Shown here: positions 10,428 to 38,630 of the stretch, in pieces
How positions within the stretch are numbered: position 1 is the first letter of the stretch
How the letters are laid out: each line of letters starts with the position of its first letter
Source: an uncultured Planctomycetota bacterium
GTDB lineage: Bacteria; Planctomycetota; Planctomycetia; Isosphaerales; Isosphaeraceae
Direction: 5' to 3'
Assembly: GCA_963823665.1 (NCBI GenBank)
Contig: CAWGMQ010000004.1
Coordinates: 2,112,001-2,176,000, forward strand
Length of the DNA stretch: 64,000 nucleotides
The notes under the pieces: generated by a model
The model's input: the letters and a program-made list of their open reading frames with translations, nothing else
Told to the model about the DNA's origin: nothing
The model's database searches: none
Position numbers and translations under genes: made by a program

Positions 10428-10457
10428 CGTCTGAGAATCGCTTAGCCAGCTCCCTAT
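10428..10457 (+). promoter_or_regulatory. candidate ECF promoter, copy 1 (CGTCTGAGaatcgcttagccagctCCCTAT)
   Basis: Matches the bipartite motif at 15920-15948(-), 16040-16069 and 38068-38096. Confidence 0.6.
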
Positions 10458-10495
10458 AGCGTTACAGAAGGGCCGGGGCGAGATCAAGCAACAGG

Positions 10496-10525
10496 AACCT
10501 GACCTGGGTCAACCTGGCTTTTTAG
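10496..10525 (+). pseudogene. 3' relic of a paralog of the 38229-38630 gene
   Basis: Reads NLTWVNLAF* versus DLTWVNVNA* at the end of 38229-38630; 13 bp identical (TGACCTGGGTCAA); lies just downstream of the same promoter motif. Confidence 0.45.
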
Positions 10526-10770
10526 CGCTCCGAACCGAGCCGCAGGTCCTGCCATGTGATTGACCTGCCAACCCGCGCAAGCGGCAGTTGCGACGCGGCG
10601 ACCAAACGCTGCGATCGCCCTGTAGAAGCTGAAATCGTCGCAGCGCGCCGGGGTGCGGCAACACCCCGGCGGCTGCCTTCCAAGGCCGGGCTCGTCGCCA
10701 TCCGTACGCCAATCGGACGTCGAGGATGGTGCGCGCCTCATCCGGGCAAATGCCCAGAGCGAGATCCATC

Positions 10771-10968
10771 ATGCCGCGCAATTCGATCAACCGAAAGTAC
10801 CGTCCAGGCTTTGAGAACCTCGAGTCCAAGCAGCTTCTGTCGGCCGGCCTGCTTGCCCACGGCGTGCAGCCTGTGATGCAGACAAGTGCGCCGGTATCGT
10901 CCCAAGCCGAGCACCAGGGGATGAGCCCGGATGGCACCGGGACGGGACTTGTCATCATCACGTCCTGA
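10771..10968 (+). CDS. 65-aa small protein with planctomycete LEPR-XLL-like export motif
   Basis: MPRNSINRKYRPGFENLESKQLLSAG resembles the planctomycete (R)xxxExLExRxLL signature; short tail ending SPDGTGTGLVIITS. Confidence 0.7.
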   Translation: MPRNSINRKYRPGFENLESKQLLSAGLLAHGVQPVMQTSAPVSSQAEHQGMSPDGTGTGLVIITS

Positions 10969-10972
10969 CCCT

Positions 10973-13677
10973 TTACTCTTTCAACTGAGCCGGGCGGGCC
11001 TTGATTTGGTCGAGCCGCACCTTGTCTGCCGCGCGTGCCGAGTCAAGCCCGATCGCCCGGCTCAGTTTTTCAACCGCCTGGGCATGGGTGCTCCGCCCCT
11101 CCGGCGACTGTCCCCCGAGGAAATAAATCCGGCTCTGCTGATCCTGCACCTGACCGAGAAGGCTGAGATACTGGGGGTTTTCCGGTGCACCCTTGCGTGT
11201 TTGTTCCCCGACCAACCAGGCAAGATGGTCCAGGGCGTCCTTGCAATCGCGCTGGGCGTCCGGGATGCGGTTCATGGCGAGGCGCACCGCGGCCCGGCCG
11301 CACAGCGTCAATGCCATCTTCTCGCGGTAATGTGGAATGACTTTATGGTTGCTGATCAGCCTGGTGAGGATCTCAGCGGCTTGTGAGTAGTTCCTCTCTG
11401 ACTCCGCCAGTGTTGAACGGTCCGTGTTCAAGAGTTCCCCTCGTCCGTTCGCGATGCCGGCGAGCTGGAATTGAAAGTCTTCATACATTTCGTCGTCCTG
11501 GGCAACCGACCCCGCGACCCGCGCCGCCTCGTCGAAATCACGGGTGGCGCGATCACGATCACCGGCTTCCATGGATGCAACGCCCCGATCCGTGAGCGCC
11601 ATCGAGAAGAGCCATTGATCCCTAGTCTTGGAGTCGGGGCTGGCGACTGGGTCGGCAAGAGGCCGCAGGGTGTCGACGGCTTGATCAGCGGCCGTGTGAG
11701 CCTCGGCGTGCTGACGCTTGAGGACGAGGATTTCGGAAAGATCGATCAGGGCCGACCCAATCGCGCGTCGGTAATCCGGGGAGATCGGGCTGGACCGAAG
11801 CTTCTCGGCATGGGTGATCGCCGCGTGAAAATCATGCTCGGCGTCGATCGTCCGGCCGCTCATATGATTGAGCTCTCCGCGATCGGTGAAGGTCTCCACC
11901 AGCCACCGGCGGTATTTCGCCTGGCCGGGGTCAATCTCGCAGAGAGCCGTCAACTCCTGGATTGCCTTCTGATAAGACTCCTGTGATTTCGTGAATTGCC
12001 CGGTGAGGCGCCCGATCCCCCCGATCACGCGAAACACCTGCGCCGTTTCGAGCCGGATGGCCGGGTCTCCCGGGAATTTCTCGCCCAGTTGTTGATATCG
12101 AGCGAGAACCAGCCCGGCCAGGTGCTCACGCAGGTTCTCCGTATTGGGAATGTACGCCAGGTTTTGCCCCGAGACTGCGAGGAGCTCTCGCAGTGCCTCG
12201 CAGGTCATGGCAAGCTGATCTGTCGTTCTCGCTTGCTCCTTCGTAATTCGCCAATTGTATATCCCCAGTCCGAGCACGGTCAGGATAAGCAGGGCGGCCG
12301 CGGCCGCAACCCATTGCTTGTGCCTGCGAACCCACCGAACGGCCCTGGCCGGGAGAGGCTCGGGGTAGGCCAGAACAGGTTCATCGGCCAGCCAGCGCTC
12401 GATTTCGCCGCCAAGTGCCTGGGGACTGGAGTATCGACCTTCCTGAGAGACTGCCATGGCTTTCAAGCAGATCGCCTCGAGCGCGGCGGGCACGGTCGAC
12501 TTGACCTGGCGGGGCCGGGGAAAGTCGCCCGTGCAGACCTTGGCCAACATGATGGACTCGTCCGACTGGTCAAATGGGGGCCTCCCGGTCAGCAGGCAAT
12601 AGAGAGTGGCCCCAAGGCTATACACATCGCTTGCGGGGCTAAGCTTCGAGAGCTGGCCCTGTGCCTGTTCCGGGCTCATGAAGCCAGGCGTGCCCATCGC
12701 CGAACCTGCGCGGGTGTAAGGCGTGCTACTGGTCGAGACCGGCGGGAGTGTGACCCCATCGGATTGAGAATCAACATCGATGGGTCCCGTCTTCGCCAAG
12801 CCCCAGTCGACCACCAGCGTCTCGCCGTAGTCGTCGAGGATGATGTTGCCTGGTTTCAGATCGCGGTGCAGGACTCCGCGACTGTGCGCGTACGCCACCG
12901 TGTTACACACATCAACGAACCGACTCAGGAGACGGCGCAGCTCCAGCGACCGATCGCCGCCGGCGAGGTCTGAAGCCTTGACTCCGTGGAATCTGGCGAT
13001 CGCGTCCTTGAGGCTGGTCCCGCTCACGAAGCGCATGGCATAGAAGGGACGTCCGTTCTCAAACAGACCCAGGCTGTAGACGGGAACGATGCCACGATGC
13101 TCGAGGCACCCGGTCACCTCGGCTTCGTGGACGAAGCGGGTCCGGCTGTGGGGACTGTCGGCCCAACGCTGCTGGATTTGCTTCAACGCCACTTCCCGAT
13201 TGAGCCTCGAGGTCCTGGGCGACCCAGACCTCACCGAGGCCGCCTCGCGCGTGGAACCGGAGAAGTCGGAAACGGGAACCTCCGGAAGTTGCCGATTCGG
13301 CATCGTGAGGGATTGTGGTGTCCGAAGCCGGTTCCGTTTGTCCGGCGGAATTCGCCACGACGTCGGGAGTGGGACGCAGGTTGGGGTCGCCGATCTGTTC
13401 GAGGTCGTGCAAGGTCGCGCTTACCGTGGTCACGGCCGCCAGGCAACTCCGAGCATTGTGATCGTGCTTCTCCATGAGCCTGTGCACCAGAGAGTTCAAC
13501 AATCCATCATCGTGCTCGGCCAAAGCTCCTTGCGAGTGGAGGACCTGACCAACGGGTTTGTCTTTCTCGCAGGCGCAGGTGCGCATCGCGGTGACGAGCG
13601 CGTCGCGCGTGATGAAGTTCATCTGGAGCGCCAGGATTCCGAAGAGCAGGTTATCGTCCGTATGGGTCTCTCGCCAT
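10973..13677 (-). CDS. Ser/Thr protein kinase with TM segment and TPR C-terminus (frameshifts near 13670 and 13206)
   Basis: N-terminal DDNLLFGILALQMNFI, ARGGLGEVW, then LNREVALK, HRDLKPGN, DWG, SPE; hydrophobic helix WVAAAAALLILTVLGLGIY; TPR-like helices. Confidence 0.85.
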
Positions 13678-13718
13678 GGATGGGTTTCCCATTCGTCGCC
13701 CCGTCGTGCGTAACACAG

Positions 13719-15269
13719 TCACGACGCATGATCCAGCTCCAGTCCCACCGCGTGCCAATCCTCAGGCCGCAACTGCTGCACTGACTGCTGGACGCGTTTC
13801 ATGTCGCGGGTTGCGACATACGGCCGGGAGGCGGGAGATTCACCTTTGGTGGGTTCGACCAGATTGTGCAACTGATCGAGGTGCAGGGACAGCGGCTGGC
13901 GTGTCCAGACGGCGAACAGCCGCTCCTGCCCGGATGGCGGCGTCATCTCTACGTCCAAGATGTTCAGTGTGCGTTGCGCCTCGATCGGGGCCGAGGAATC
14001 GGCCGACTGCGGATCTGGATAGAGCAAGTTCAAATGTCCGGTCGGGCCGACGTTGAACACCGTCAGGTAGCCCGCCCGGTCGGCGATTGCCTCGATGCGC
14101 ACGTGGTCTCTGGTTCGCAGGCTAACCTGGTCGGGCGACTTTGGCACGCGTTTCATGTCGCGGGTTAGTCGATCGGGACGCGGGTGGGTGGCCGCCACGT
14201 GTTCATAACGGCCGCTGTTGACACGGCGGCTGACGTTGAGGCGAAGAGCCGCCGGTTTGTGCGGGCGAGCCTCGCCCTGCGGCGTGGATAGCGTGTCGGC
14301 CAGAAGCTGGTTGAGTGATCCTCGCAAGCTGTCGACGAACTCGCGCAGATTCGGTCGTTGATCCGGGCTCGACCTCAGGCCGGCGCGGATCACTCGCTCA
14401 AGCGGAGCGGGGAGCCCAAGGCACCTGGAATCCGGGTCGGGCAGGCCCATGGCGATCTGCGCTTTATAGTCAGAGATCTGCGTGCCGAGGAATGGCTGAA
14501 ACCCGGTCACGAGGTGAAACAGCGTCGCGGCCAAGCCGTAGACGTCAAGCGAAGGTGAAACCTTGCCGTCATATGCCTCGGGGGCCATGTAGGCGAGCGA
14601 TCCGGCGACGCTGGCGGGGTCGCCCAGCCACGAGCCCACTCCAAAGTCAGTCAGAAGCGCCTCGTCACGCTTCGGCTCCCAGAGAATGTTCGCCGGCTTC
14701 ACGTCGCGGTGGACAATTCCTTGCTTGTGGACCGCGAGCAACCCCTCGCCCACATCGGCGATATACCGGGCGGCTCGCTGCCAGAGGAGCGGCCCTTCTG
14801 CCTTCAACAGATCGGCAAGGGACCCGCCCGGCACGTATTGCATTACGAGGAAGTGCTGCTCGCCGACTGTCAGCCAGGTGTAAACCCGCACAACGTTGAG
14901 GTGAGCGACCTGAGTCAGCAGGTGTGCGTCCTTCCGGAGCACCTGCACGGCCCGCCGCCGCTCGTCGGGGGCGGTGCCAACCCTGAGTGTTTTCACTGCG
15001 ACCACTCGCGGCAGGTTCAAGTCCTGCGCCAGCCAGACCTCGCCGAACGCTCCGGAGCCGAGGAATTTGTACACGCGGTATCCGTGGATTCCCAGGTCGG
15101 GCATTGTCGTGCCGGTGGGCACGTCTTCAGGCGTCAGATCGTCGAGCATGCGCTGACAGTCAAAGCATTCCTCGACGTGCGCCTCGATCCAGGCATGCCA
15201 TGCCGGCCCGAGCGAGTCGTCTTGAGTCACGTATTGCTTCAGTTCCCCAGGCGCAGGACAAGCGGCCAT
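13719..15269 (-). CDS. Zn-finger (anti-sigma-like) - Ser/Thr kinase - DUF4384 protein
   Basis: N-terminal CP...HVEECFDC (HxxxCxxC); GSGAFGEVW, VAVK, HRDVKPAN, DFG, APE; C-terminal DHVRIEAIADRAGYLTVFNVGPTGHLNLLYP...PPSGQERLFAVW typical of DUF4384; GAGGTG RBS. Confidence 0.85.
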   Translation of the reverse strand: MAACPAPGELKQYVTQDDSLGPAWHAWIEAHVEECFDCQRMLDDLTPEDVPTGTTMPDLGIHGYRVYKFLGSGAFGEVWLAQDLNLPRVVAVKTLRVGTAPDERRRAVQVLRKDAHLLTQVAHLNVVRVYTWLTVGEQHFLVMQYVPGGSLADLLKAEGPLLWQRAARYIADVGEGLLAVHKQGIVHRDVKPANILWEPKRDEALLTDFGVGSWLGDPASVAGSLAYMAPEAYDGKVSPSLDVYGLAATLFHLVTGFQPFLGTQISDYKAQIAMGLPDPDSRCLGLPAPLERVIRAGLRSSPDQRPNLREFVDSLRGSLNQLLADTLSTPQGEARPHKPAALRLNVSRRVNSGRYEHVAATHPRPDRLTRDMKRVPKSPDQVSLRTRDHVRIEAIADRAGYLTVFNVGPTGHLNLLYPDPQSADSSAPIEAQRTLNILDVEMTPPSGQERLFAVWTRQPLSLHLDQLHNLVEPTKGESPASRPYVATRDMKRVQQSVQQLRPEDWHAVGLELDHAS

Positions 15270-15283
15270 GACAACACCTCGCG

Positions 15284-15871
15284 TCAATTCGAATGTTCAA
15301 GGAGTTCGACTTCCTGCTGAAGCAGGGTCAGGACCTGATACTTTGCCTGGCTAACCGCGCCGACCTTCATGCCAAGCTCTCGGGCCACATCGGCACCTTT
15401 GCGGCATTGTTCCGCTATTTCCACATATGCGGACCAAGTGCGCGGCTCGACGCGGGCGCGTACGTTTTCTTTGGCTTTTTGCAGCAATTCCAGGTCGTAT
15501 TCCCGCGCGAGCCTTGCCAGCAGGTCCTCGCCTGCCTCTACCTCTTCCACAAGACCATCGCCGTCGACCACCCGCCGCCCTCGCTCTCTCTCCTTCAGGT
15601 CTGCCATCAAACGGTGCGTCACGGTTTTCAGGTATCCGCGGAAGGTTCTGGCGGGGTCGTAGACGAACTCCCTCAGTCGCCTGACCAGCAGGAGCATGAC
15701 TTCGTTAACCATGTCCTCGGTCTCACGCGGAAACCACCGGTGGCACCAACCGCTGATCATCGGGGCATAGCGCGCGTAAAACTCCTCCCATGCCTGTTGA
15801 TCTGCGGGGTCGTGGAGGCGGCCCAACAGGGTCCGGCTGGTCCGCGCTGGGTCGAAGCTGCCCGTAGTCAT
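15284..15871 (-). CDS. ECF RNA polymerase sigma factor (planctomycete kinase-associated type)
   Basis: TSRTLLGRL..DQQAWEEFYARY, TEDMVNEV, FVYDP..TFRGYLK, region 4 VARELGMKVGAVSQAK; GAGGT RBS before ATG 15871. Confidence 0.92.
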   Translation of the reverse strand: MTTGSFDPARTSRTLLGRLHDPADQQAWEEFYARYAPMISGWCHRWFPRETEDMVNEVMLLLVRRLREFVYDPARTFRGYLKTVTHRLMADLKERERGRRVVDGDGLVEEVEAGEDLLARLAREYDLELLQKAKENVRARVEPRTWSAYVEIAEQCRKGADVARELGMKVGAVSQAKYQVLTLLQQEVELLEHSN

Positions 15872-15919
15872 CGCTGGTACCTCGGTTCGACTTCGGAATC
15901 GCGACCATCCAACTCTCTG

Positions 15920-15948
15920 ATAGGGGGATCGGAACGATTTCTCAGACG
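15920..15948 (-). promoter_or_regulatory. candidate ECF promoter, copy 2, upstream of the sigma gene (CGTCTGAGaaatcgttccgatccCCCTAT)
   Basis: Same motif and spacing as 38068-38096; ~50 bp upstream of the sigma ATG, consistent with autoregulation. Confidence 0.65.
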
Positions 15949-16039
15949 GGATTTCCATTGAAAGGTTTTCCGCCGAGTTCTGTACGAGATCACAGCGAGA
16001 GAAAGCGCAATGGGCGGAGTTCATGAGCTGTTCGGATTG

Positions 16040-16069
16040 TCTCTGAGATCCCGCCCCATCGACCCCTAT
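16040..16069 (+). promoter_or_regulatory. candidate ECF promoter, copy 3, upstream of the SGNH hydrolase (tcTCTGAGatcccgccccatcgacCCCTAT)
   Basis: Divergent from copy 2; both continue as CCCTATCAG. Confidence 0.5.
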
Positions 16070-16198
16070 CAGCCTACAGAGGGTCGGTGAGCCAAATCCA
16101 ATGATTTCAATACCATCCCTCCGAACACGGGAAGCCGATCGGCGTGCGCACCATCGCTGACCAGGTGTTCCGAACCTTGGTCTCGAATCCACAGGGAG
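16056..16198 (+). repeat. 143-bp imperfect direct repeat, copy A
   Basis: Colinear with 22775-22917 (shared GTGAGCCAAATCCAATGATTTCAAT..CCATCCCTCCGAA, GATCGGCGTGCGC, TGGTCTCGAATCCAC..GGGAG). Confidence 0.9.
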
Positions 16199-16206
16199 AA
16201 ACAACA

Positions 16207-17985
16207 ATGAAACTTGCTCGCAGGAAAAACGATGGTGTCAACCGGTTTGGTTTGAACGGAATCCTCATCATCCTCGGCGTCGGGGCTTGTCTGTTAGTCG
16301 TGGCCTTACAAGTCGATCGCGGGCCCGAACGCTCGGGCGCGAGCGCGTCTGCCCTGCCGCCAGTCCCCGTAAGGATCACCTGGGCCATGGCCGAGCGATT
16401 CGGCCCCGGCTATGACCGCAACCACGACGGCCGGCCCGACCTTCCCAATTCGCACGAATACGTGAACCCTGGTCGATACGAGGTTCATCTCGCCGCGAGC
16501 GTCGGCGCCAGCGCCCAAGCGACCGCGGACATGTCGTGCGTCTGGACGATCGACGGTCCTAATCAAGCGACTGGTCTGTGTGCGGCCGGGCCGAAGCCGG
16601 TGGTCCAGCTCCCGATGGGCACCTACTCCGTGACGGTTACCGTCCACCTTGCCGACGGCCGGGCCGGATTGGCCCGCGAGACAGTCCGCGTGAAGGACAT
16701 CCTGATCGTCGTGCTCGGCGACTCGCTGGCCGCCGGCGAGGGTAACCCTGAGGTGCGCGCGTGCTGGAAGGGGGCGGGGACTTCGGCCCAGACCTGGAAG
16801 CTCCGAGGCCGCCTCGACCCGCCAACGCCCGCCGGATGGGCCTATGGCGGCCCCGGTGGCGATCAGCCCCGTGCGACCCCCGCGGGGATTTTGCCACCGG
16901 CAGACGTCTCGCACGCCACGGCTCATCGCTCGACTCTCTCGGGCCCGGCTCAGTTCGCGAAGCGCCTTGAGGCGGAAGACCCACACACGTCGGTCACGTT
17001 CGTCTGCCTGGCCGCCACCGGCGCGCGTATCGATGAGCTATTCAACAGCGAGCGGTCAGTGTGCAACAAGACCAGGGGGCCGGGGCCGGCACTCCGGGCC
17101 CAGATTGATGAGCTGCACGCGATTGCAGGCTGTCGGCCGGCAGACATTCTTGTCCTGTCCGTCGGCCTCAATGACGCCGGTGGCTTTGAATTGCTGGGCG
17201 AGCTACTTCGCCGGGAGATCCGGTGCGTTGATCCATGCCGTTTGCTCGCGGTCTACCCGACGCGCAAGGAGTGGACGGCGGCCGCGTCTCCGGACCTCGA
17301 GGCCTTGGTCGACCCGACGAAACGCTCGTGGCTAAACGGACTCGAGGCCGACGCCCGGCGCACCGCACTGGTCAAAGACGCCGCCCTGATCTTCGACCTG
17401 GCCGAGATGGCCGCAGCCGGGGTGGCAAGGGCCCGCGAGCAATTCGAACGCCTGACAACAGCGATCGCCAGCGATCAGCTCCTGGCCCAGGCGGAGATCT
17501 ACCTGCTCGAGTACCCCGACCCAACAGGTGACGCAAACGGCACCGCGGGCGCGGCCATGCTGGCGGACCTCGTCCCCGGCTTTCAGGTCAATCGTCGCGA
17601 GCTGGATCTGGCCCACGAGCGCTTGTTGCGTCCCCTGATGATGATGCTCCGTGAGGTGGCCAGCAGCCAGAACTGGACCTGCGTTGACGGGATCTTCACG
17701 ACGTTCCGGAGCCACGGCCCTGCGGCGACGGAAGCCTGGTTCGTGAAGGCGAAGGAGTCAGAGGAGCTTCAGGGCCCGCGCTTGACGCCCCTGGCGTACG
17801 TCCGCGGCGAGTTTTCTCCGGGAATGCTGCACCCGAATCGGCGTGGACATCAGGTCGTCGCCGATCAGTTGTACGAGCGCCATGCGGCGGTCAGGACGGG
17901 TCGGCTCCGGGCACCGCAGGTGGTTTCTCGTGGTCTCTCCAGCTCCGATCAGGTTCGCTTTGGAAGGGACCGGAGGCCTCGCTGA
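16207..17985 (+). CDS. membrane-anchored/secreted PKD-like + SGNH/GDSL hydrolase
   Basis: N-terminal hydrophobic helix; GTYSVTVTV PKD-like strand; block I GDSLAAGEG, block III SVGLND, block V LHPN; GGGAG RBS. Confidence 0.8.
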   Translation: MKLARRKNDGVNRFGLNGILIILGVGACLLVVALQVDRGPERSGASASALPPVPVRITWAMAERFGPGYDRNHDGRPDLPNSHEYVNPGRYEVHLAASVGASAQATADMSCVWTIDGPNQATGLCAAGPKPVVQLPMGTYSVTVTVHLADGRAGLARETVRVKDILIVVLGDSLAAGEGNPEVRACWKGAGTSAQTWKLRGRLDPPTPAGWAYGGPGGDQPRATPAGILPPADVSHATAHRSTLSGPAQFAKRLEAEDPHTSVTFVCLAATGARIDELFNSERSVCNKTRGPGPALRAQIDELHAIAGCRPADILVLSVGLNDAGGFELLGELLRREIRCVDPCRLLAVYPTRKEWTAAASPDLEALVDPTKRSWLNGLEADARRTALVKDAALIFDLAEMAAAGVARAREQFERLTTAIASDQLLAQAEIYLLEYPDPTGDANGTAGAAMLADLVPGFQVNRRELDLAHERLLRPLMMMLREVASSQNWTCVDGIFTTFRSHGPAATEAWFVKAKESEELQGPRLTPLAYVRGEFSPGMLHPNRRGHQVVADQLYERHAAVRTGRLRAPQVVSRGLSSSDQVRFGRDRRPR

Positions 17986-18261
17986 TCGCAAGTGAGGTCG
18001 AACTGGTTTCTGTCCTCGGTACACGATCGGTCGGCCGAGGAGGAGTCAGCCGGGAAGTCAACGTATAATGCCAGTTCTACGATCAATCGATCAGCAAGCG
18101 CTGGGAAGGTGACCCGCTACATGAATCGCGTCCGGTGATCGGTGCAGAAGTTGTGCTGCGGTGATCGGCAGGCGGTGGGCCTGGTGCTGGATGATGGCCA
18201 TTGAGGGAACCACGCTAGAGTGGCAATTTGCACTCAAACGGGGTTTGGGAGAAATGAACCC

Positions 18262-22809: not shown

Positions 22810-22917
22810 GCCAAATCCAATGATTTCAATGCCATCCCTCCGAAGAAGCGAAGTCGATCGGCGTGCGCGCCGCCTCTGAGCAGGTGTTATGAGCCCTGGT
22901 CTCGAATCCACCGGGAG
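22775..22917 (+). repeat. 143-bp imperfect direct repeat, copy B
   Basis: Same length as and colinear with 16056-16198; overlaps the last codons of TPR-CHAT. Confidence 0.9.
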
Positions 22918-26271: not shown

Positions 26272-26404
26272 TGGCGTGGAGTCTGCACTCCCCTCGTCAG
26301 GGCAATGCTTCTACGTCGCCCTGGAGCAAGGCGTTGGGACCGAGGCGTTCTGTTCGATTATCCTCGCCTCGGAGCCGGCGGACTAGTGGAGTGCCCCCAT
26401 CTGG

Positions 26405-29374: not shown

Positions 29375-29377
29375 TCG

Positions 29378-30319
29378 ATGGCAACGAGAAAGCCCACTCT
29401 CTTCTCGACAGAGTCCGTTGGCAACGTAGCCGTTTTTCGGATCGAGACGACGACGTTGTTCGACGAGCGTGACGTAAAACGTTTGTTTGACGAACTCGCT
29501 GAGGCCATCGGCCCGCGTTCACAAATCATCGTTGATCTGGCGCAAGTTCTTCATATGAGCAGCACGGCCCTATCAAAGCTGGTACTGATGCATAGGCAAT
29601 CAAGAATCAGAGGGGGCCAGGTCGTCCTGTGTAACTTGGCACCGAAAGTGAGCGAAGCGTTCCGGACCAGCAAGCTCGACAAGTTGTTTGAGATCGCGTC
29701 GAGCCTGGAGGAGGCCCTGGCCGCCCTGCACTGGTCCTTGGAGGTCAGGTGCCCAATCGCGGGTTGTGAGGGGACCAGTCTGTCCCACGAACCATCCATA
29801 GCCGAGCAGGGAGGAGTGCAGTGCTGCCGGTCATGTGGCTGCCGGTTCTGGTTGGCTCCGTTCCAGCTCTCCCCGCGCGGCGAGGCCCGGGTCGCGGTGT
29901 CGCGCTTCGCGATCCCTACCTATGAGCAGGAGCAGATTCGCGCGGCGCTCGGTGTCATCGTGGTTTTTGATATCGTCGGCCGGCTGGACCTATTCGCCTC
30001 CGAGGCGTTGGTCGACGCCTGGCGGTCCGTGCCACAGTCGTGTCGTGCTTTGCTCGATCTCCGCGCGGCGACGGAGTTGAGCGAACCGGGCCTTCGTTTG
30101 CTCAAGGGGCATGTCGGCATCAATAATACCTCGCCCAATCGGATCGTCGTCTTGGTCGACCAAGATCGGTTTACTCGAACGCACGCGATTATTTCGAATG
30201 CTTGCATCACGACCAACCACGACGAAGCAATGTCCGCACTGCACGGTTCTCTTGCATCGGACGAATCGCCGACTCCTCTCATGGTGCTGGCGCGAAAGGT
30301 CGACACAACGATGGAATAA
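29378..30319 (+). CDS. STAS (anti-sigma antagonist) - Zn ribbon - second STAS-like domain
   Basis: IIVDLAQVLHMSSTALSKL...GQVVLCNL..KVSEAF..SKLDKLF; CPIAGC...CRSC; second GRLDL...LLDLRAATELSEPGL; starts 3 bp after the PP2C gene stop. Confidence 0.82.
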   Translation: MATRKPTLFSTESVGNVAVFRIETTTLFDERDVKRLFDELAEAIGPRSQIIVDLAQVLHMSSTALSKLVLMHRQSRIRGGQVVLCNLAPKVSEAFRTSKLDKLFEIASSLEEALAALHWSLEVRCPIAGCEGTSLSHEPSIAEQGGVQCCRSCGCRFWLAPFQLSPRGEARVAVSRFAIPTYEQEQIRAALGVIVVFDIVGRLDLFASEALVDAWRSVPQSCRALLDLRAATELSEPGLRLLKGHVGINNTSPNRIVVLVDQDRFTRTHAIISNACITTNHDEAMSALHGSLASDESPTPLMVLARKVDTTME

Positions 30320-30448
30320 CCCCAGTTGCCTCACGCGGAGCCACCAGCCGGGCGGCGCGAGTTCTTGTGATCGACACCTTGACGCTGGAAGCCACTCGTG
30401 GCCGTAGATCCGTGCTAATCGGGCCCGGGGAACACTGGTCCGGACAGA

Positions 30449-31310
30449 TCATTGCGGCCGAACCGCCGCCGCGCTACGATGACCTATGGCCGGAGCGGTA
30501 GCCGAAATGCCTGAGCAGTTCGCGGCGCCAAGAACGCGGCAAATTCTCTTCTGAAACTGGGATCCTGAACCAGTTCAGACGAGGGCCATGCATTTCACGC
30601 CGTGTCGGAGGTCCGTTTGGAGAAGATCAAGGTACTGCTCTTCGCCGCGAATCCGCGGGGCACAGCACCGCTTGATCTGGCGCGCGAGTTCCGCGAGATC
30701 GACGAAGAAGTGCGTCTGGGCACGTTCCGGAGCGCGGTTGAGCTGATCCTCGTTCCCGGCACGCGGCCGGTTGATCTGCTGCGAAAGCTCAACGAAAACC
30801 AGCCACAGATCGTGCATTTCAGCAGTCACGGTAGTCCGGACGAGATCGTCCTCGAATCCGGGGAGCCAGAGGCCGCGGATGTGGGTTTGGGCGGCGCCAT
30901 TCTTCGTTCGGCTGATGAACGGGACATGAAGAAGGTAGGCCCGGTCGAGGTCGTCGGCTTGGGCCATGGCGAGCCTCAAGTGGTCAGCAAGTCGGCGCTT
31001 GTGAATGTGCTGCGTTCCTGCAACCAGGGTAATCTCCGGCTGGTGGTGCTGAATGCCTGCAGCACCCGGCCACAGGCCGAGGCGCTGACAGAGGTCGTTG
31101 ACTGTGTTGTAAGTATGAATCAGACCATCACGGACCGGGCAGCAATCATGTTCGCGGCCTCGTTTTATGGAGCGCTGGCATTTGGTTGCTCCGTGCAAAA
31201 GGCGTTCGAGCAGGGAGTGGCGCGGTTGGGCGCGGAGGCGATTATCGAGTGCGACACGCCTGAGCTGGTGATAAGGAGGGGAGTTGACGCCGCGCAGGTC
31301 GTGCTGGTTG
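30449..31310 (+). repeat. ~860-bp duplicated cassette (upstream region + CHAT domain), copy B
   Basis: See copy A at 26405-27266. Confidence 0.95.
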
Positions 31311-34300
31311 GACTGGCACCGAAAACGCCTGCGACCCCGGCCCCCGAGGCTTCGTTCATCGTACCATTTCCGCGGAACGGCGAGTTTGTCGGACGGGATG
31401 GCGACCTGCAGCGGCTGCATGCTCAATTGTCTGGTCCGGGATCGGGCCCGGTCGGCATCCGCCCGGCTGGTCTGACTGGGATGGGCGGCATTGGCAAGAC
31501 CCAGCTCGTGGTCGAGTACGTGTACCGACATCGGGACGATTATCCGGATGGCATCTTCTGGATCGACGCGGCCGGACCTCTGGCTGAAGGCTTTGCCAGG
31601 CTGGCGACGGATCATCGTTTGCGCTGGGCCGAGAACGAACAGCCTCGCGATGAGCAGATTCAGGCGGTGTTCAAGACGTTCGACTCCAGGCCACGAGCGC
31701 TACTGGTGCTCGACAATCTACCTGACCCGTCGGCATTAGCTGTCTCGCTTTCAACTGGCTGTGTACCGGAGGATTTGCGCTGCCGGGTGCTGTTCACAAC
31801 GCGCCGGCACGACCTGGGGCGGTTTGTGGGGATTGAAGTCACGATCCTGCCCGAGGAGCCGGCTTTGCAGCTCCTGCTTCGGCACCCCTCACGCCGCGCG
31901 GCTCTGATACCATCCCATACCGATCACGAGCACGCCCGCGCAATTGCGCGGATGCTCGGCCGCTTACCCCTGGCGCTGGAGCTGGCTGGGGCATACCTTG
32001 GCAAGTACAGCGCCGAGGTCTCGCTCGAGGACTATCGCGAGGGGCTGAAGTCCGACGGGGCTTTGGCGACGCTCAATGCCGATGCCGCCGAGTTGACCGA
32101 GGCCGACCTGAGGCGGGTGCACGACCCCGCCGTGGCGGCGACGATCGGCGAACAGTGGGCGTCATTGCGAGACGAGTCGGCCCGGCTGCTGCTACAGGTT
32201 GCAAGTCTTTTTTCGGAATCGACCGCGGTGCCGATCGTGCGACTCGGCCTGCTGGCGGGTTTCAGTGACGAGGCGCGGCCGGGACGGCGCTCGCCGCTGC
32301 GCCGTACGGCGCAGCGGCTCGATGACGCGTGTCTGATTGAGCGGTTGGAAGGGGACCAACTTCGGCTGCATCCGTTGATACGTGAGTTTGCTCGCGGTCA
32401 GATGTCTGCGGACCAGATCGACCAATTCGTGTGCGCATGCCTGGCTCGCGTGGCCACGGCAATTGAAGAGTGTAAGACGCTCGAAGCGCTGTATGCGGAG
32501 CGTGGGGTGGACTCTCTCCAGGAAGATCTGATCGCTTTCCTCGAATTGTGTAAGGTATCGGCTTCGGATCTCTTAGCCCGGCTCCAGATCGTTTTACGGC
32601 TCATGCAGCAGGAGGCTCACAACCTTCGTGGTGGCCAAGCAAAAACCAGCCCGACGTATTTTGCTCAACAGGTCCGGAACCGGGCGGTGCTTTTGAGCAT
32701 CGCCCCTCTTCGCGGAAGTGCAGAAGCACGACTCGCCGCGCTCGCCGAGCCGCACTTTGCATTGCAATGGACGGCGAGCCGTGAATCGCGAGATTTGATC
32801 CGTACACTGACCGGCCACGGAGACTGGGTCAGCGCAGTGGCGGTGAGCCGCGACTCCCGTCACGCCTTCTCTGGTTCTGGAGACCGCACGCTGAGGTTGT
32901 GGAATCTGCGAACGGGTCAACTCCTGCGCACATTCACGGGACACGAGCATACCGTGAAGGCTGTGGCGGTGAGCCCAGATGGCCGACAAGTTCTATCAGG
33001 TTCGCACGACTGCACGCTGAGACTTTGGGATGTGGAAACCGGTGGTCTTCTCAACACTTTCACAGGCCACGCGGGCATGGTGTTCGCGCTGGCGATGAGC
33101 CCCGACGGTCAACAGGCCGTCTCAGGCTCGCGCGATTGCACGCTCAGGCTCTGGGACCTGCAGACTGGCCAGCTCTTGCGCACCTGCGTGGGCCATGAAG
33201 ACGGGGTATGCGCGGTTGCGATTTGCCCAGACGGACGCCGTGCCTTTTCCGGTTCGCGCGATCGCACAGTGAGGCTGTGGGACCTTCAGACGGGTCGGCT
33301 CCTCCGTACCCTCACGGGCCATGACGATATGGTCTTCGCCGTGGCGGTTAGCCCCGATAGCCGGCACGGCCTCTCGGGCTCCGAGGATCGCACACTGAGG
33401 CTTTGGGACCTGCAAACCGGCCAGCTCCTTCGCACATTCGCTGGCCACGAAGGCGGAATAAATGCAGTGGCGATGAGCGCTGACGGCCGCCACGGCCTCT
33501 CGGGCTCCGAGGACCGCACACTGAGGCTTTGGGACCTACAAACCGGGCGGTTCCTTCGCACATTCGCCGGCCATGAGCATGGGGTGGGTGCAGTGGCGAT
33601 CGCTCCTGACGGGCGACATGTTCTCTCGGGGTCTGATGACCGCACCGTCAAGCTCTGGGATCTCGTGGCCGGCCACTCTCCACCGATCACCAATGGACAC
33701 GCCAGCGCTGTGAGCGTGGTGGCGATGAATCTGAATACTCGCCAGGCTCTCTCCGGCTCGCGCGATTGCACGCTTCGACTCTGGGACATGCGAACCGGCC
33801 TGCTCGTGCATTCGTTCAGCGGGCACGAGAGCGAAGTGAATGTAGTGACGATCTCGCCTGACGGACGTCATGCCCTATCCGGCTCCTACGACCGCACCCT
33901 CAAGCTCTGGGATCTGCGGACTGGCCAACTCGTCCGCACATTCGCAAGCCGCGAGGGTTCGTATGGTGTGATAGCGGCAAGCCCCGACGAACGCGATGCT
34001 CGCTCCGGTTCCCTGCACCACACCCTGAATTTTTGGGACCGTCGATACGGACGGTTAATGCGGACAATTCACCGCACGCTAAAGCTATCGGCGCTTCGGG
34101 CACTGCAACAATGGGTCCTCTTATTGAACCATTCGCAGTGGGTAAATGCCGTGGCTACAACTTCCAACGGCCGCTGCGCCCTCACGGGTGCGCAGGACGG
34201 CACACTCAAACTCTGGGATTTGCGGACCGGTTATCTCATTCGCTCTTTCGTCGGCCACACGAATGCTATTGCTACGGTGGTGGCGGCATCCGATGACCAC

Positions 34301-34687
34301 TTTCCTCCTTCTGGCTCCGAGGGCCACACGAATGCTATTGCCACGGTGGTGGTGGCATCCGATGACCACTTTGCTCTTTCTGGCTCCGAGGACCACACGC
34401 TCCGGCTCTGGGACCTCGTGACCGGCCAGCTCCTGCACACCTTTACTGGGCACACGGGCCCGGTGAGCGCTGTCGCGCTAACCTCGGACGGGCGTCATGC
34501 GGTTTCAGGCGCGCGCGACCGCACGCTTCGGCTCTGGGATCTAGAAATGCGAGTCTGCCGAGCCATTGTACCGCTTGAAGGTGCGCCTGCGTCGGTCGCG
34601 CTCGGGTCCGACGGCCAAACCATAGTCGTCGGTGATAGAATTGGGAATGTGCATTGCTTCCATATCTTGAGTCTTGGCGAGGGCTGA
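30617..34687 (+). CDS. CHAT - NB-ARC (STAND) - WD40 NLR-like protein
   Basis: CHAT nearly identical to the 26573 gene; VPFPRNGEFVGR, Walker A GMGGIGKT, Walker B LLVLDN, TTR, LPLAL, LHPL; about 14 GH...WD repeats; TTG start inferred by homology with 26573. Confidence 0.93.
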   Translation: MEKIKVLLFAANPRGTAPLDLAREFREIDEEVRLGTFRSAVELILVPGTRPVDLLRKLNENQPQIVHFSSHGSPDEIVLESGEPEAADVGLGGAILRSADERDMKKVGPVEVVGLGHGEPQVVSKSALVNVLRSCNQGNLRLVVLNACSTRPQAEALTEVVDCVVSMNQTITDRAAIMFAASFYGALAFGCSVQKAFEQGVARLGAEAIIECDTPELVIRRGVDAAQVVLVGLAPKTPATPAPEASFIVPFPRNGEFVGRDGDLQRLHAQLSGPGSGPVGIRPAGLTGMGGIGKTQLVVEYVYRHRDDYPDGIFWIDAAGPLAEGFARLATDHRLRWAENEQPRDEQIQAVFKTFDSRPRALLVLDNLPDPSALAVSLSTGCVPEDLRCRVLFTTRRHDLGRFVGIEVTILPEEPALQLLLRHPSRRAALIPSHTDHEHARAIARMLGRLPLALELAGAYLGKYSAEVSLEDYREGLKSDGALATLNADAAELTEADLRRVHDPAVAATIGEQWASLRDESARLLLQVASLFSESTAVPIVRLGLLAGFSDEARPGRRSPLRRTAQRLDDACLIERLEGDQLRLHPLIREFARGQMSADQIDQFVCACLARVATAIEECKTLEALYAERGVDSLQEDLIAFLELCKVSASDLLARLQIVLRLMQQEAHNLRGGQAKTSPTYFAQQVRNRAVLLSIAPLRGSAEARLAALAEPHFALQWTASRESRDLIRTLTGHGDWVSAVAVSRDSRHAFSGSGDRTLRLWNLRTGQLLRTFTGHEHTVKAVAVSPDGRQVLSGSHDCTLRLWDVETGGLLNTFTGHAGMVFALAMSPDGQQAVSGSRDCTLRLWDLQTGQLLRTCVGHEDGVCAVAICPDGRRAFSGSRDRTVRLWDLQTGRLLRTLTGHDDMVFAVAVSPDSRHGLSGSEDRTLRLWDLQTGQLLRTFAGHEGGINAVAMSADGRHGLSGSEDRTLRLWDLQTGRFLRTFAGHEHGVGAVAIAPDGRHVLSGSDDRTVKLWDLVAGHSPPITNGHASAVSVVAMNLNTRQALSGSRDCTLRLWDMRTGLLVHSFSGHESEVNVVTISPDGRHALSGSYDRTLKLWDLRTGQLVRTFASREGSYGVIAASPDERDARSGSLHHTLNFWDRRYGRLMRTIHRTLKLSALRALQQWVLLLNHSQWVNAVATTSNGRCALTGAQDGTLKLWDLRTGYLIRSFVGHTNAIATVVAASDDHFPPSGSEGHTNAIATVVVASDDHFALSGSEDHTLRLWDLVTGQLLHTFTGHTGPVSAVALTSDGRHAVSGARDRTLRLWDLEMRVCRAIVPLEGAPASVALGSDGQTIVVGDRIGNVHCFHILSLGEG
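34253..34390 (+). repeat. 69-bp in-frame tandem duplication inside a WD40 blade
   Basis: GHTNAIATVVAASDDHFPPSGSE followed by GHTNAIATVVVASDDHFALSGSE. Confidence 0.9.
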
Positions 34688-34690
34688 TCG

Positions 34691-37600
34691 ATGGAGGCTG
34701 CAACGGGCGAACGCGCCGGGGCAGCGGTCTTGATCGGGATCGGCGACTATTTGCTTGGAAAGCAGGTCTGGCCGCTGCGTTATGCTCGCGCGATGCAGAG
34801 GCGATGGCGGCTGTCCTCTCCGATCCCGATGTCTGCGGATTTCCTGCGCACAAGGTCAAGCTCCTCACCGATCAATCGGCCTCCCGCGACACGGTTGCCC
34901 ACCACCTTTCGAAGTGGCTACCCGAGCAAGCTCGCGGGGCAGAAATTGCGGTCATCTACTTTGCTGGCCACGGGATGATTCACCGGATCGGGCAGCGGGA
35001 GGAGGGCTATCTGCTCCCCTACGATGCCGATCCCGACGATCTGGAGACGCATGGCGTGCTCATGACCGATCTGGCCCGGTGGATCGAGGCGATTGATGCC
35101 GGGACGGTTATCGTCTGCCTTGACTGCTGTCATGCGGCAAAGGTCCTTCCGCGCGGGGTAGCTTCGGCACCGGCGACTGGGCGCAATATGCGGATCAGGC
35201 CGGCAATGCTCCAAGAATTGACGGGCCGAGGACGATACTTGATCGCGTCGTGCGACGATGGCCAGGTCTCACTCGAGTCGGACACGTGGGGGCATGGGCT
35301 TTTTACCTATCATCTTCTCGACGGCATCGGAGGCGCGGGCGATCGAGACGGTGATGGACGGATCGGCGTCGCCGAACTGTTCGAGCACGTGGCCGAGGCG
35401 GTGGAACGTGATTCCCGCGCGCTCGGGACGATCCAGAAGCCGTGGAGCTGCTCAATTGGATCTGGCGGCGTCTATCTGTCCGCTCCGCGTCGGAAGGGCG
35501 ATGCAGGGCGATCAAAACCCGCTCGGGCAATGTCTGTTACCGCCGCCGAGCGTCTATGCCGCGAGCAGGGTGCAGCGGCCACCATCGGCGAAATTGAGCG
35601 AACAATTGACTGGGCGGATGTCGGCCAGCTCGGGCTGATTGTTGACCTGCTGAGAGTGATTGAACACCCGGCGGCGATTCCTCTGCTATTCCGATGTCTG
35701 GCGCACGCGCGGGAGGAAGTCCGCACTCGGGCCAAGACGGTCGTGCGTACGATCGGCTGGGAGAAGGTGGCGGCTTTCATCGAAGTTCTCGCTCGGTGTG
35801 GCGACGACGAACAGTTTGGTGCGGTGCTCGATGGATTGGCCGCGTTCGAGGCTCACCGCGAGATCGTCACGTTGCTCGACCGGCTGGTGACCATGCTCAA
35901 AGGCGACCAGCGTAACCGGACAATCTTTCTGCTGGAGCGGAAGCACCAGTCCCTGGACCTCGAGCGCATAACGGAATTGTTTCGCGAGTCGCAAAGCCCT
36001 TACCAGATCCAGAAGGTTTTGGGCCAGGGGCTTTGTACGGCGGCTTACCTTGCGCGCGACGAGTCCAGCGAACTCGAGGTCGTGGTCCGCGTACTTCGCC
36101 CCGAACTGGCGAGCTCGCCGCAGATTCGGGCGCAGTTTCTGGACCTCTCGCGGCGGTCGCTCAAGCTCGTTCATGAGAACTTGGTTCTGACCCGGGAGGT
36201 CAAGGCTTATTCCGACCGACACATCTACTTCGCGGTGCGGGACTTTGTGGATGGAGTCACACTCCAGAAGCTGCTTGAATCGGGCCGCGCCTTCTCTCCG
36301 GATCAGATCATCAAGATTCTCCGGCAGGTTCTCCGAGCGCTCGTGCCGCTGCATGCCAAGGGGATTTTGCATGGGTCGATCAAGCCGTCCAACCTCTTTC
36401 TGTGCGGTGAGGATCGGGTGATCCTGGGGGATCTCGCCTTGCCGTTGCGTGGGTTTAGCGTGCAGCTCGACCGACTGTCGTACGATTACCGCTATGCGCC
36501 TCCGGAGATGTTTCGCGAGGACGGCGCACTCGGCCCCTGGTCAGACTTTTACGCCGTGGGCTGCGTGGGGTACGAGCTGGCGTGCGGAGCACCTCCGTTC
36601 GTATCTGACAATTATATCGAGCTGGCCGGGCGGCACGTCGGCGAGACAGCCGGCCCGCCCAGCGGGCGCGGTAGCAGGCTGGGCGCGGCCGGCGATGCCG
36701 TGCTCCTTCGTTTTCTGGCCAAGTCAACATCGGATCGACCGCAGATCCTGGGTGAGGCCCTTGAGTCCATCGACGAGCTGCATTCCGCTCTGTTCCCGAG
36801 GATGCAACCGAAATCTCCACCGGCACCGATTTTGGCGGACGCATCGCTGATTCGATATGTGACTGATGATGCTTTGTCTCTGGTTTCCTTCGCGTTTGAC
36901 GCGAGATCGGTTGAGGACACTACCACAAGCCGAATCACAGGAGTGACCGCGACGGGGACGGAACACACCCTTGCATTCGCGATTGATCCCGATGAGGAGA
37001 AATTAGCGCATCGATTCAAGGCAGACGGTTCTCGGATCGGAAGATACACAATCATCAAGGAGATCGGCAGAGGAGGTCTGGGAGCGGTGTATCTTGCGCA
37101 TGACGAACGTCTCCAACGGAACGTGGCCATCAAAGTCGTCGCTCGGGCGTACCACAGTGATTCCAGTTGGCGGAGTCGGTTCGAACGCGAAGCCACGCTG
37201 ATGGCCCGACTTGATCACCCGAGCATCGTCAGAATTCTTGACATGGGTGAGGAGGATGGCTCGTTTTACACCGTTCTCGAGCTCGTCTCGGGTGGGGACC
37301 TTGGGCACCAACTTCGGGATCGAGCCTGGCTGCCGGAGGAGGCAGCTCGGCTTATGGCAACGCTGGCGCGGGCAGTGGACAGTGTGCATTCTCATGGCGT
37401 CATCCATCGCGACCTGAAGCCTTCCAATATTTTGTTTGATATATCCGGAACGCCCAAGATCACCGACTTCGGTCTGGCCAAGCTGATCGGCGAACAGCAA
37501 GAGGATGCTGCGGAAACGACGGAAGGGATGGTCATGGGAACGCTAGCGTACATGTCGCCGGAGCAAGCCAGTGGAGAGATCGGCAGAATTGGTCCGGCAA

Positions 37601-37947
37601 CCGATATCCACGCTCTGGGAGTGATCCTCTATGAGCTGCTCGCCGGCCGTAGGCCATTCAAGAGTGGCACATCCTCGGAAATGCTGATGCAAGTGCGGGA
37701 ATACAAGCCCGAGCCACCGAGTCGGTGGCGTTCCGAAGTACCGCGCGACCTGGACGCGATCTGCCTCAAGTGCCTCGACAAAGAACCGGAACGACGATAC
37801 TCCACCGCGGCGGCCCTGGCCGACGATCTCGAGCGATTCATCGACGGGCAACCGATCATGGCGGGGCCACGTCCTGTTTGGGAGCGTCTGCTCCGTTCGT
37901 TCTGGCCCAGGAAGTCGCCGGGAGGCCAGGCTCGCCCTGAGAAATGA
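34691..37947 (+). CDS. caspase-like (peptidase C14) - HEAT-like - pseudokinase - Ser/Thr kinase (frameshift near 34786)
   Basis: ATG 34691 gives AVLIGIGDY..PLRYA, which continues in another frame as RDAEAMAAVL; YFAGHG and LDCCH dyad; HGLFTY; kinase 1 degenerate (HGSIKPSN, GDLA); kinase 2 intact (GRGGLG, VAIK, HRDLKPSN, DFG, SPE). Confidence 0.88.
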
Positions 37948-38067
37948 ACACATCTTAGCAGAAGGTCGAACCCGAAGGCCCGCTCGCCGACATAGACCTG
38001 CCCTATACTGTTGCGCAGGGCGACGGAGTGGAGTGATCCGCGCCGATCACGCCGCAGCCGACCAAGT

Positions 38068-38096
38068 CGTCTGAGAATCTCCGGGCTCGTCCCTAT
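38068..38096 (+). promoter_or_regulatory. candidate ECF promoter, copy 4 (CGTCTGAGaatctccgggctcgtCCCTAT)
   Basis: Same spacing as the copy upstream of the sigma gene; ~130 bp upstream of ATG 38229. Confidence 0.62.
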
Positions 38097-38228
38097 GTGT
38101 TTATGGGGGAAGTGGAGGCCAGATCCGGCAGTTCGGGTCGCTGTCCTCCGAATCGTCGGCGAGGTGAGGTCGTGCGCGTCACGGCTCAAACTGTCGGCCC
38201 CCGGAACCAAATCCAAGGAGAGACTCTC

Positions 38229-38630
38229 ATGCGCATCGCTCATGTCACAACGGATGAAGTCAATCAGGCACTGGCAGTTCACGCAGCGAAGTCACTTGGT
38301 GCCGACGTTACCCCGCTCGCTCCAGAGGACGTCGCAACCCGAATGCTGTTCGACGCGGTTCTCTACGATCTCGACCGCGTGTCGCCGAGCCGGCGACAGA
38401 CACTGCTCGCTGAGATTCGCTCGGAAAAGACTGGAGTCCCGATCGCCGTTTACGGCTATTGCCTCTCGGAGGATCAGGCGGGCAAGCTCCGATTCCACGG
38501 CGTCGCCGTGGCGCAACGGCTTCATGCCACGCTGATCCGAACCCTGGTGAATGCGGTCCGTCAGAACCTCGCCGCCGTGCCACCGGACGACGCGATCACG
38601 GACTTGACCTGGGTCAATGTCAACGCGTAA
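38229..38630 (+). CDS. 133-aa hypothetical protein, possibly a degenerate receiver-like fold
   Basis: AAGGAG RBS; MRIAHVTTDEVN...FDAVLYDLD...PIAVYGY resembles the beta1/beta3/beta4 pattern of REC domains. Confidence 0.7.
   Translation: MRIAHVTTDEVNQALAVHAAKSLGADVTPLAPEDVATRMLFDAVLYDLDRVSPSRRQTLLAEIRSEKTGVPIAVYGYCLSEDQAGKLRFHGVAVAQRLHATLIRTLVNAVRQNLAAVPPDDAITDLTWVNVNA

Follow-up and report, generated by a model that had tools for sequence, protein, structure and literature searches.

Introduction

Few bacterial CHAT and C14 proteases have known substrates and cleavage sites. In a type III-B CRISPR system, SAVED-CHAT is activated by oligomerizing and cleaves a C14 protease, and the sigma factor is also cleaved; CRISPR-free versions of SAVED-CHAT/PCaspase, linked to the cyclic oligonucleotide-based antiphage signaling system (CBASS), have already been reported (accessible text of bioRxiv 10.1101/2023.06.23.546230), so that being free of CRISPR is in itself no novelty. 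Csx30 is cleaved within its C-terminal domain, a DUF4384 in some orthologues (accessible text of bioRxiv 10.1101/2022.08.17.504292). Proteolytic release has been proposed for the pair DdvA-DdvS, in which DdvA, a single membrane protein whose TPR-CHAT is periplasmic, controls genes of CBASS and CRISPR (PMC11506125, accessible part). Here we analyzed a window of 64,000 nucleotides (the whole stretch of DNA under study) from an uncultured Planctomycetota bacterium of the family Isosphaeraceae (assembly GCA_963823665.1), in which an earlier note had pointed to a CRISPR-independent island of about 28 kb that combines caspase-like proteases, kinases and a sigma factor of the extracytoplasmic function (ECF) type.

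The island is real and belongs to a recurrent, unnamed system. Its conserved unit, as 21 loci showed, is the sigma factor plus a kinase-DUF4384 protein, together called the hub below, and the protease partners (TPR-CHAT, CHAT-STAND and C14-kinase) are exchangeable. A short arginine motif, R[DN]M, is common to the proteases and the hub kinase. This suggests a single transcription switch to which numerous sensors signal through cleavage of this tag. We give a probability of roughly 0.55 to the reading in which sensors switch on proteases that cleave after the motif Arg, process one another as well as the hub, and thereby release or activate the sigma factor.

Results

Gene content of the island

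Pfam and NCBIfam scans identified five His/Cys clan CD domains, two STAND NTPases (both with Walker A and B), three kinase genes, a SpoIIE-type PP2C, STAS and an ECF sigma factor, in agreement with the list in the earlier note. The note had counted five proteases, four CHAT and one C14, all with His/Cys dyads. We located the dyads in all five (H1335/C1428, H973/C1019, H71/C148, H76/C153 and H106/C158, open reading frame [ORF] numbering), which represent only four lineages, because the protease domains of the two CHAT-STAND proteins are 88% identical. A zinc-finger protein and DUF4384 had likewise been listed; both are present, and zinc finger, kinase and DUF4384 form one protein. Beyond that list, the island holds a GDSL esterase, TssK-like and GAF domains on one CHAT protein and a small receiver-fold protein. 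The noted absence of cas genes and array held: no Cas family was found among 30 ORFs scanned (nor were cas7-11 and csx31 found in the locus), and no CRISPR-like array was among the 9 tandem-repeat rows of the window. The genome's only cas10 match is located about 326 kb past the window end.

The hub of sigma factor and zinc-finger kinase

The hub and its motif sites are as follows.

13719..15269, minus strand: hub protein of 516 residues with a CHCC zinc finger (ZAS-like), an active-type Ser/Thr kinase and DUF4384, without a transmembrane helix (family scans, DUF4384 model)
15284..15871, minus strand: ECF sigma factor of 195 residues, acidic region-2.2 motif (ETED) kept
14154..14162, minus strand: motif site 1 (RDM), in a loop of DUF4384 that was modeled with low confidence; Arg in 120/120 homologues
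13800..13808, minus strand: motif site 2 (RDM), in the helix predicted at the C terminus of DUF4384; Arg in 118/119 aligned homologues

The zinc finger, on the protein adjoining the sigma factor, has the pattern C-x26-H-x3-C-x2-C (C4, H31, C35 and C38). Family zf-HC2 was matched on the close hub homologues P0007 and P0009, and the 63-residue zinc-finger region of the window hub itself had no Pfam or PDB match. None of 120 hub homologues had a strong transmembrane segment, and in P0118 the ECF sigma factor is fused to the hub. ETED of the sigma factor aligned with the acidic region-2.2 motif; since this motif is kept, restraint of the sigma factor by the zinc finger appears more likely than the ECF43 mechanism. 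DUF4384 was modeled as a beta-sandwich (predicted local distance difference test 84.5), and a fold search of the model against the PDB gave no match at E 0.001 or better, the top rows being Ig-like sandwiches such as RhoGDI. Among hub relatives, P0374, P0234 and P0116 are fused to DUF7363-like and TIR domains, or doubled, and their DUF4384 motifs vary (RGM, RGV and RDL).

Placement of the arginine motif in hub and proteases

Each of the five protease domains carries the motif.

18220..22809, plus strand: TPR-CHAT protease; RDM at 21595-21603, within an insertion that is specific to the clade and precedes the catalytic core; RDL in a second loop
22921..26271, minus strand: TssK(VasE)-like, GAF, DUF7363 and CHAT protease; RDM at 23560-23568
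26573..29374, plus strand: CHAT, NACHT-like STAND and SpoIIE PP2C phosphatase; RDM at 26876-26884, within an insertion that separates the catalytic His from the Cys
30602..34687, plus strand: CHAT, NB-ARC STAND and WD40 (NLR-like); RDM at 30920-30928
34691..37947, plus strand: C14 metacaspase-like protease, middle domain, pseudokinase and kinase; RNM at 35182-35190, 19 residues past the catalytic Cys

Seven copies of R[DN]M occur in the island proteins, two in DUF4384 and one per protease domain, and none in the remainder of those proteins, where 0.64 would be expected. The chance of one motif in each of five independent regions is about 3e-8, for a motif that was picked after being seen. No R[DN]M occurs in the sigma factor. 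Two RDM copies were found in 107 of 120 hub homologues, and site 1 appears exposed in the DUF4384 model. In the CHAT-STAND clade, His and Cys are separated by an insertion of about 35 residues that holds the motif (13/13 clade rows versus 0/15 distant ones). In the TPR-CHAT clade, 7 of 10 rows have it in a short insertion that precedes the catalytic core, and the other three have it in an adjacent frame (0/8 distant). Members of the C14 clade have R[DN]M in the linker after Cys (10/13 versus 0/17 distant). The motif position thus differs between the protease lineages and is clade-specific.

The C14 profile matched metacaspases, and both metacaspase Asp positions are kept. Non-metazoan C14 proteases cut after Arg or Lys, and MaOC1 needs autoprocessing (PMC5756287, accessible part); with both Asp positions kept, cutting after Arg would fit the island C14. 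The first kinase domain of this protein lacks the catalytic Lys and Asp and is a pseudokinase. At locus L071, CHAT and C14 are interchanged on the same kinase scaffold. The profile of the STAND-linked CHAT matched SAVED-CHAT 8TL0 (E 1.1e-33), by which the CHAT domain on the STAND proteins belongs to the SAVED-CHAT subfamily. No close homologue of the TssK-like/GAF/CHAT protein was present among the loci compared. This protein joins the TssK-like domain to GAF, DUF7363 and CHAT and has an internal duplication of 66 bases at 25587-25718, a fusion that is possibly an oligomerization or decoy module. A type VI secretion link of the TssK-like domain was considered and rejected, as both genome matches sit in this one protein.

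The same placements bear on an alternative that we consider unlikely, namely that the motif serves docking or inhibition without cleavage. DUF4384 would then be a pseudosubstrate or a PCi-like inhibitor that restrains the proteases, the sigma-kinase pair would make more inhibitor or sense bound protease, and the dangerous output would be the C14 protease or a kinase. Two motif copies, one of them in a predicted helix, would suit such a role, as would stand-alone DUF4384 genes that adjoin proteases in related loci (L006, L151 and L152), a sigma promoter that drives the hub's own operon, and the precedent of PCi, which is both cut by PCaspase and inhibits it (accessible text of bioRxiv 10.1101/2023.06.23.546230). 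Yet the proteases themselves carry the motif, the C14 protease at a zymogen-like linker position, and site 1 lies in a loop that the model predicts to be flexible. Moreover, because the DUF4384 model matched no solved structure at the above threshold, no inhibitor fold is indicated.

Co-variation of the motif between DUF4384 and proteases

Twelve DUF4384 loci were chosen by DUF hit, with two further kin loci set aside, and the Arg-led words in the last 75 DUF4384 residues were compared with the proteases of every locus. The protease of the same locus ranked first in 5, 5 and 6 of the 12 loci under three window settings (permutation p 7e-5, 3e-4 and 2e-3). Exact DUF4384/protease matches included RGIGGL in L180 and RDIGVK in L181, in the latter within one fused protein. 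Furthermore, both sides switch within the clade, to RNM/RNM in L268 and L272 and to RDI/RDI in L284 and L288. The shared peptide motif that had been proposed to link the genes is far beyond chance and co-varies between the partners. At L284 (9926-12268), a CHAT is followed by Clp-N-like repeats, assigned by eye, and carries RDIKR identical to the neighboring DUF4384 site.

Occurrence in other genomes

Among 121 genomes of the family, 18 had strong matches to the hub DUF4384 region, and two more had weak matches of another type. From a limited number of best-scoring candidates per genome, the TPR-CHAT clade was found in 12 genomes, the CHAT-STAND clade in 11 and the C14 clade in 13; the first two occurred exclusively in genomes of the hub set of 18, and 11 of the 13 with the C14 clade also belonged to it. 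Hub family members in metagenomes amounted to 315 proteins, and another search gave 132 clusters at E 1e-30. A phylum search with the DUF4384 profile found at least 15 of 401 genomes, from the best candidates (up to 8) per genome.

These counts, together with the co-variation, also bear on whether the motif is a mere self-processing site of Arg-specific proteases, the hub being an ordinary kinase-regulated planctomycete ECF pair and the genes clustering since such islands collect signaling genes. This we regard as quite unlikely. It would account for RD[LM] in loops of distant CHAT and C14 proteins that have no hub, for the receiver-fold gene that flanks other ECF-kinase pairs (L240, L242 and L243) and for the 22 CHAT matches in the genome, and kinase-linked ECFs are a known planctomycete feature (PMC7826278, accessible part). 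It fits poorly with DUF4384, which is no protease and keeps the motif twice, with the motif changing together on both sides, and with protease clades that are nearly confined to hub genomes.

In 21 hub loci, counted on stretches of 11-40 kb, a CHAT or C14 gene was present at 19, an ECF gene at 15 and both at 14. The receiver-fold gene was found at 10 of the 21, PP2C plus STAS at 2 and the kinase-TPR protein's N-terminal domain at 7, and at least two of the three protease classes at 8. The co-occurrence elsewhere that the earlier note had proposed to check was thus observed. Its 28-kb system was upheld in that the parts recur, and revised in that they form a two-gene hub with interchangeable, partly dispersed proteases and not a fixed unit.

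The locus counts and gene content also speak to a further possibility, that the cascade destroys the sigma factor or kills the cell (abortive infection), as with PCaspase, the sigma factor merely maintaining expression of the system. PCaspase cleaves PCc-sigma and is toxic once activated (accessible text of bioRxiv 10.1101/2023.06.23.546230), and the NLR-like STAND sensors and the C14-kinase fusion of the island, like its patchy presence, would agree with such an outcome. We nevertheless hold it very unlikely: the sigma factor is without an R[DN]M site, 12 of the 21 hub loci have no C14 in the stretch compared, and family scans found no pore-forming or nuclease family among the island ORFs.

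Motif-bearing proteases were also found away from the hub. In the host genome, RDM occurs inside CHAT at 3 of 12 other CHAT loci sampled (L011, L020 and L021), and in relatives the motif occurs at 9 of 12 clade-protease loci away from the hub (L244-L255), so that the island would hold the hub and only some of its likely inputs. The host genome has two further ECF-kinase-DUF4384-TPR-CHAT loci with a hydrophobic helix after the kinase and RG-type motifs (L006; L008-L009). They share the hub type and a short co-varying motif with the island, whereas the island hub is distinguished by the lack of a membrane helix, by two motif copies and by STAND-CHAT and C14-kinase partners. In these exported-type loci (L006 8590-19177; L008 13954-19999 plus L009 1-6551), the RG-type motifs are common to DUF4384 and CHAT, and L006 also has an ECF gene and a second, stand-alone DUF4384. 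At L298 (8342-10890), an anti-sigma protein with zinc finger, membrane helix and a DUF4384-like domain lies beside an exported C14, a kinase-free form of the theme.

Promoter motif and putative regulon

The promoter motif CTGAGA-N15/16-CCCTAT has four sites in the island.

10431..10457, plus strand: ECF-type promoter motif CTGAGA-N15-CCCTAT before a gene remnant
10496..10525, plus strand: remnant matching the C-terminal peptide of the receiver-fold gene (38229-38630) (translation, alignment)
15920..15945, minus strand: promoter motif before the sigma-kinase operon
16043..16200, plus strand: divergent promoter motif and 130-base leader; the leader precedes the receiver-fold gene in orthologous loci
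16207..17985, plus strand: GDSL-family esterase with PKD-like domain and hydrophobic N-terminal stretch (E 2e-6, under the Pfam cut-off)
22789..22917, plus strand: second leader copy (84% identical) in the gap between convergent genes
38071..38096, plus strand: promoter motif before the receiver-fold gene
38229..38630, plus strand: single-domain protein of 133 residues with receiver (CheY-like) fold and an active site that is atypical; its gene usually runs divergently from that of the sigma factor

The four sites precede the sigma operon, the GDSL gene, the receiver-fold gene and the receiver-fold remnant. A promoter motif had been said to link the genes of the island, which holds for these four and for no protease gene directly. 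In orthologous loci, the same motif or a TGTAAG/CGTA variant precedes the same genes, and the same motif lies before GDSL homologues in L237 and L238. As a two-part motif, it has 9 matches in the genome, 4 of them in the island (control 9). The hub loci, from which the motif was itself derived, gave 17 matches in 463 kb versus 2.1 in shuffles, and 340 kb of other loci gave none. The 10-mer CGTCTGAGAA alone was rejected as a signal, as it was not enriched genome-wide (22 matches, control 22). Because ECF sigma factors usually autoregulate, we infer that the sigma factor reads the CTGAGA/CCCTAT motif; the sigma-kinase operon is likely autoregulated, and the GDSL esterase is a putative regulon member. 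The TPR-CHAT gene lies on the same strand behind the GDSL gene, and directly after the hub in several relatives.

The receiver-fold protein was found in 14 of the 121 genomes, 12 of them hub genomes, and its gene also lies beside the other ECF-kinase pairs mentioned above. The leader was rejected as a dispersed repeat, since only 2 copies exist in the genome. A palindrome, AAATC-N4-GATTT, lies in the leader at 16094 and 22813 and in orthologous leaders (L059, L061, L073 and L075), and is a possible regulator site.

Island boundaries, frameshifted genes and neighborhood

The host genome comprises 16.46 Mb in 12 contigs, with the window on contig C4, and was examined by searches and regional sampling. 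The remaining features of the island are as follows.

10339..38665, no strand: island block, missing in G029 between NHL and helicase-C genes
29378..30319, plus strand: STAS protein with a Ser where the phospho-site usually lies; by eye, its C-terminal half resembles STAS, without Pfam hit
10973..13703, minus strand: Ser/Thr kinase-TPR gene, as assembled frameshifted at 13205 and probably near its start (about 13685)

In the same-genus genome G029, the block is absent between the same flanking NHL and helicase-C genes, which lie about 100 bases apart there; similarity to the window ends at 38666 and restarts at 10338. This difference reflects either gain in the source genome or loss in G029.

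The C14 gene also has a frameshift as assembled, near 34786, with its true start at 34691. Assembly error is the likely cause, with decay as the alternative: intact orthologues exist (L140 and L061), a related contig does not have the additional base at 13205 (depth 3.5, 5 other letters), and an unrelated kinase-WD40 gene at 49.6-56 kb is likewise spread across several frames.

A 739-residue Helicase_C_3 protein at 8105-10324 borders the island and was present in 2 of 5 relatives searched. Just outside the island, 39867-46182 holds kinase-start and TIR-like ORF fragments (without Pfam hit), three short ORFs and then an nSTAND1-WD40 gene, forming a second, partly broken STAND locus without R[DN]M. 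The kinase-WD40-TPR genes at 46184-55956 are broken across many frames, through assembly indels or decay, and a frameshifted IS110-family transposase lies at 57117-58649.

Discussion

The observations are best joined by the reading that proteolysis at the motif Arg controls the sigma factor. The island would encode a cytoplasmic signaling network with one hub, the ECF sigma factor and the soluble zinc-finger-kinase-DUF4384 protein, and several exchangeable inputs. TPR, WD40-STAND and GAF sensors would activate the fused CHAT proteases, the STAND proteins via oligomerization. The proteases would recognize x-R-[DN]-M and most likely cut after Arg, as the co-varying motif suggests; because each carries the motif, they would be able to process themselves and each other, the C14 protease being cut zymogen-like in the linker after its catalytic Cys. 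Cleavage of DUF4384 at the exposed site 1 would switch the kinase or free the sigma factor from the zinc finger. The sigma factor would then drive its own operon, the receiver-fold protein, here the GDSL esterase, and probably the TPR-CHAT gene behind GDSL, and PP2C and STAS might reset phosphorylation. By analogy, a response to intracellular invaders or damage is the likeliest purpose.

Several results weigh against this reading. Site 2 in a predicted helix would be a poor substrate unless unfolded. Distant CHATs of hub-less genomes have RD[LM] in a different loop (L087, L089 and L090), and RDL occurs in distant C14 linkers (L124, L125 and L132), so that an R[DN]M-type site may be a general self-processing site. 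The window C14 has RNM but the window hub RDM; the protease of the same locus was not ranked first in 6-7 of the 12 loci, and the co-variation test was devised after sight of some matches. The zinc finger is present in 66 of 104 full-length hub homologues, and no ECF gene lay in the stretch compared at 6 of 21 hub loci. Two genomes with the C14 clade, G019 and G039 (79% and 63% complete), gave no hub with the query used, and in G062 the hub was present and a clade protease was not found. Lastly, the genomes compared are kin, many of them frameshift-rich assemblies, and the known targets of the promoter motif are not defense effectors.

A bolder extension, which we put forward tentatively and hold at somewhat under even odds, is an inflammasome-like network that uses an address code. 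Many sensors of NLR-like and TPR type, some of them encoded at a distance from the hub in the genome, would be wired to one kinase-sigma hub by an Arg motif gained separately in each protease lineage, two-sided drift would keep parallel networks apart (RDM cytoplasmic, RG types exported), and DUF4384 would be a general receptor for caspase-like proteases. If so, the DUF4384 motif would predict cleavage sites from sequence alone.

For the cascade at hand, the letters of the DNA by themselves point to a cleavage site, a substrate and a read-out promoter, which makes it testable with a few purified domains and a reporter. If cleavage at the motif controls the sigma factor, DUF4384 would gain a function, bacterial NLR-like STAND proteins would be tied to transcription and not to cell death alone, and the island would exemplify an independent module of a kind possibly borrowed by type III CRISPR and CBASS systems. 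The natural motif variants (RDM, RNM, RDI and RG types) are candidate orthogonal protease-substrate pairs.

Comparison with known systems

No PADLOC or NCBIfam defense model fitted the island in the search for a named system that the earlier note had called for; only generic kinase and repeat hits and weak Avs1b and SAVED_CHAT hits appeared. The CHAT-NB-ARC-WD40 protein has the layout of Avs and bacterial NLR proteins, with N-terminal effector, STAND NTPase and C-terminal repeats, and no named Avs model matched above cut-off (Avs1b 27.8 bits versus 1500, E 5e-5 in PADLOC).

Each comparison below is with what the accessible portion of the respective source describes. The DdvA-DdvS pair of Myxococcus xanthus resembles the island in its CHCC zinc-binding anti-sigma domain, TPR-CHAT and ECF sigma factor; the island, in contrast, has its zinc finger on a soluble kinase and encodes its proteases as separate, cytoplasmic proteins (PMC11506125). 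Groups ECF59, 61, 62 and 217 likewise have an ECF gene followed by a kinase gene at +1, ECF54 has CHAT genes nearby, and ECF25 has an anti-sigma protein with zinc finger and DUF4384. The kinases and anti-sigmas of these groups are mostly membrane proteins, whereas the island hub is without a membrane helix, and a shared motif or caspase partner is not mentioned in the accessible parts (PMC7826278, PMC8999054). Unlike ECF43, the island sigma factor keeps the acidic region-2.2 motif (PMC8999054). The EACC2-caspase systems share a CRISPR-free caspase, variable sensory domains and an ECF sigma factor, with autopeptidase activation proposed there, and the accessible part does not mention a kinase-DUF4384 hub (PMC8195603). 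In the island, no DUF1822 family was found, the caspase_w_EACC1 model scored 104 bits versus a cut-off of 140, and there was no EACC hit in libraries not confirmed to hold an EACC2 model. Since these systems share parts with the island, caspase-like ECF control without CRISPR has been proposed before and the principle is known. The hub, the shared motif and the cytoplasmic STAND-fed form were not found described in the literature searched, with subscription-only papers mostly outside it and a prior mention possible.

Two modules come closest. The type III-B SAVED-CHAT/PCaspase/PCk/PCc-sigma/PCi module of Haliangium ochraceum likewise has a CHAT of the same subfamily, a C14, a Ser/Thr kinase and a sigma factor in one locus, and the activation of a second protease by an oligomer-activated initiator may, by analogy, be common to both. 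The island differs by having no cas gene or cyclase and STAND, TPR and GAF domains instead, a kinase with zinc finger and DUF4384, and up to four protease lineages with one motif. No SAVED domain was found in Pfam scans of the island CHAT proteins; a genome-wide SAVED search gave no match, but its controls were likewise blank, and no PCi was identified, no search aimed at it having been made. With the type III-E Csx29/Csx30/Csx31/RpoE module, the island shares a TPR-CHAT with His/Cys dyad (remote likeness only to Csx29 chains, E 0.4), an ECF sigma factor as well as a sigma-linked protein with a DUF4384-type C terminus; the cleavage of Csx30 between VGM and KK, early in the domain, resembles hub site 1 (RDMKR). 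Cas7-11, Csx31 and an array are absent from the island, the sigma partner is a zinc-finger kinase, and the invariant residue is Arg, not Met. By analogy, the island would work like the SAVED-CHAT/PCaspase and Csx29/Csx30 modules; it is without their defining sensors and belongs to neither.

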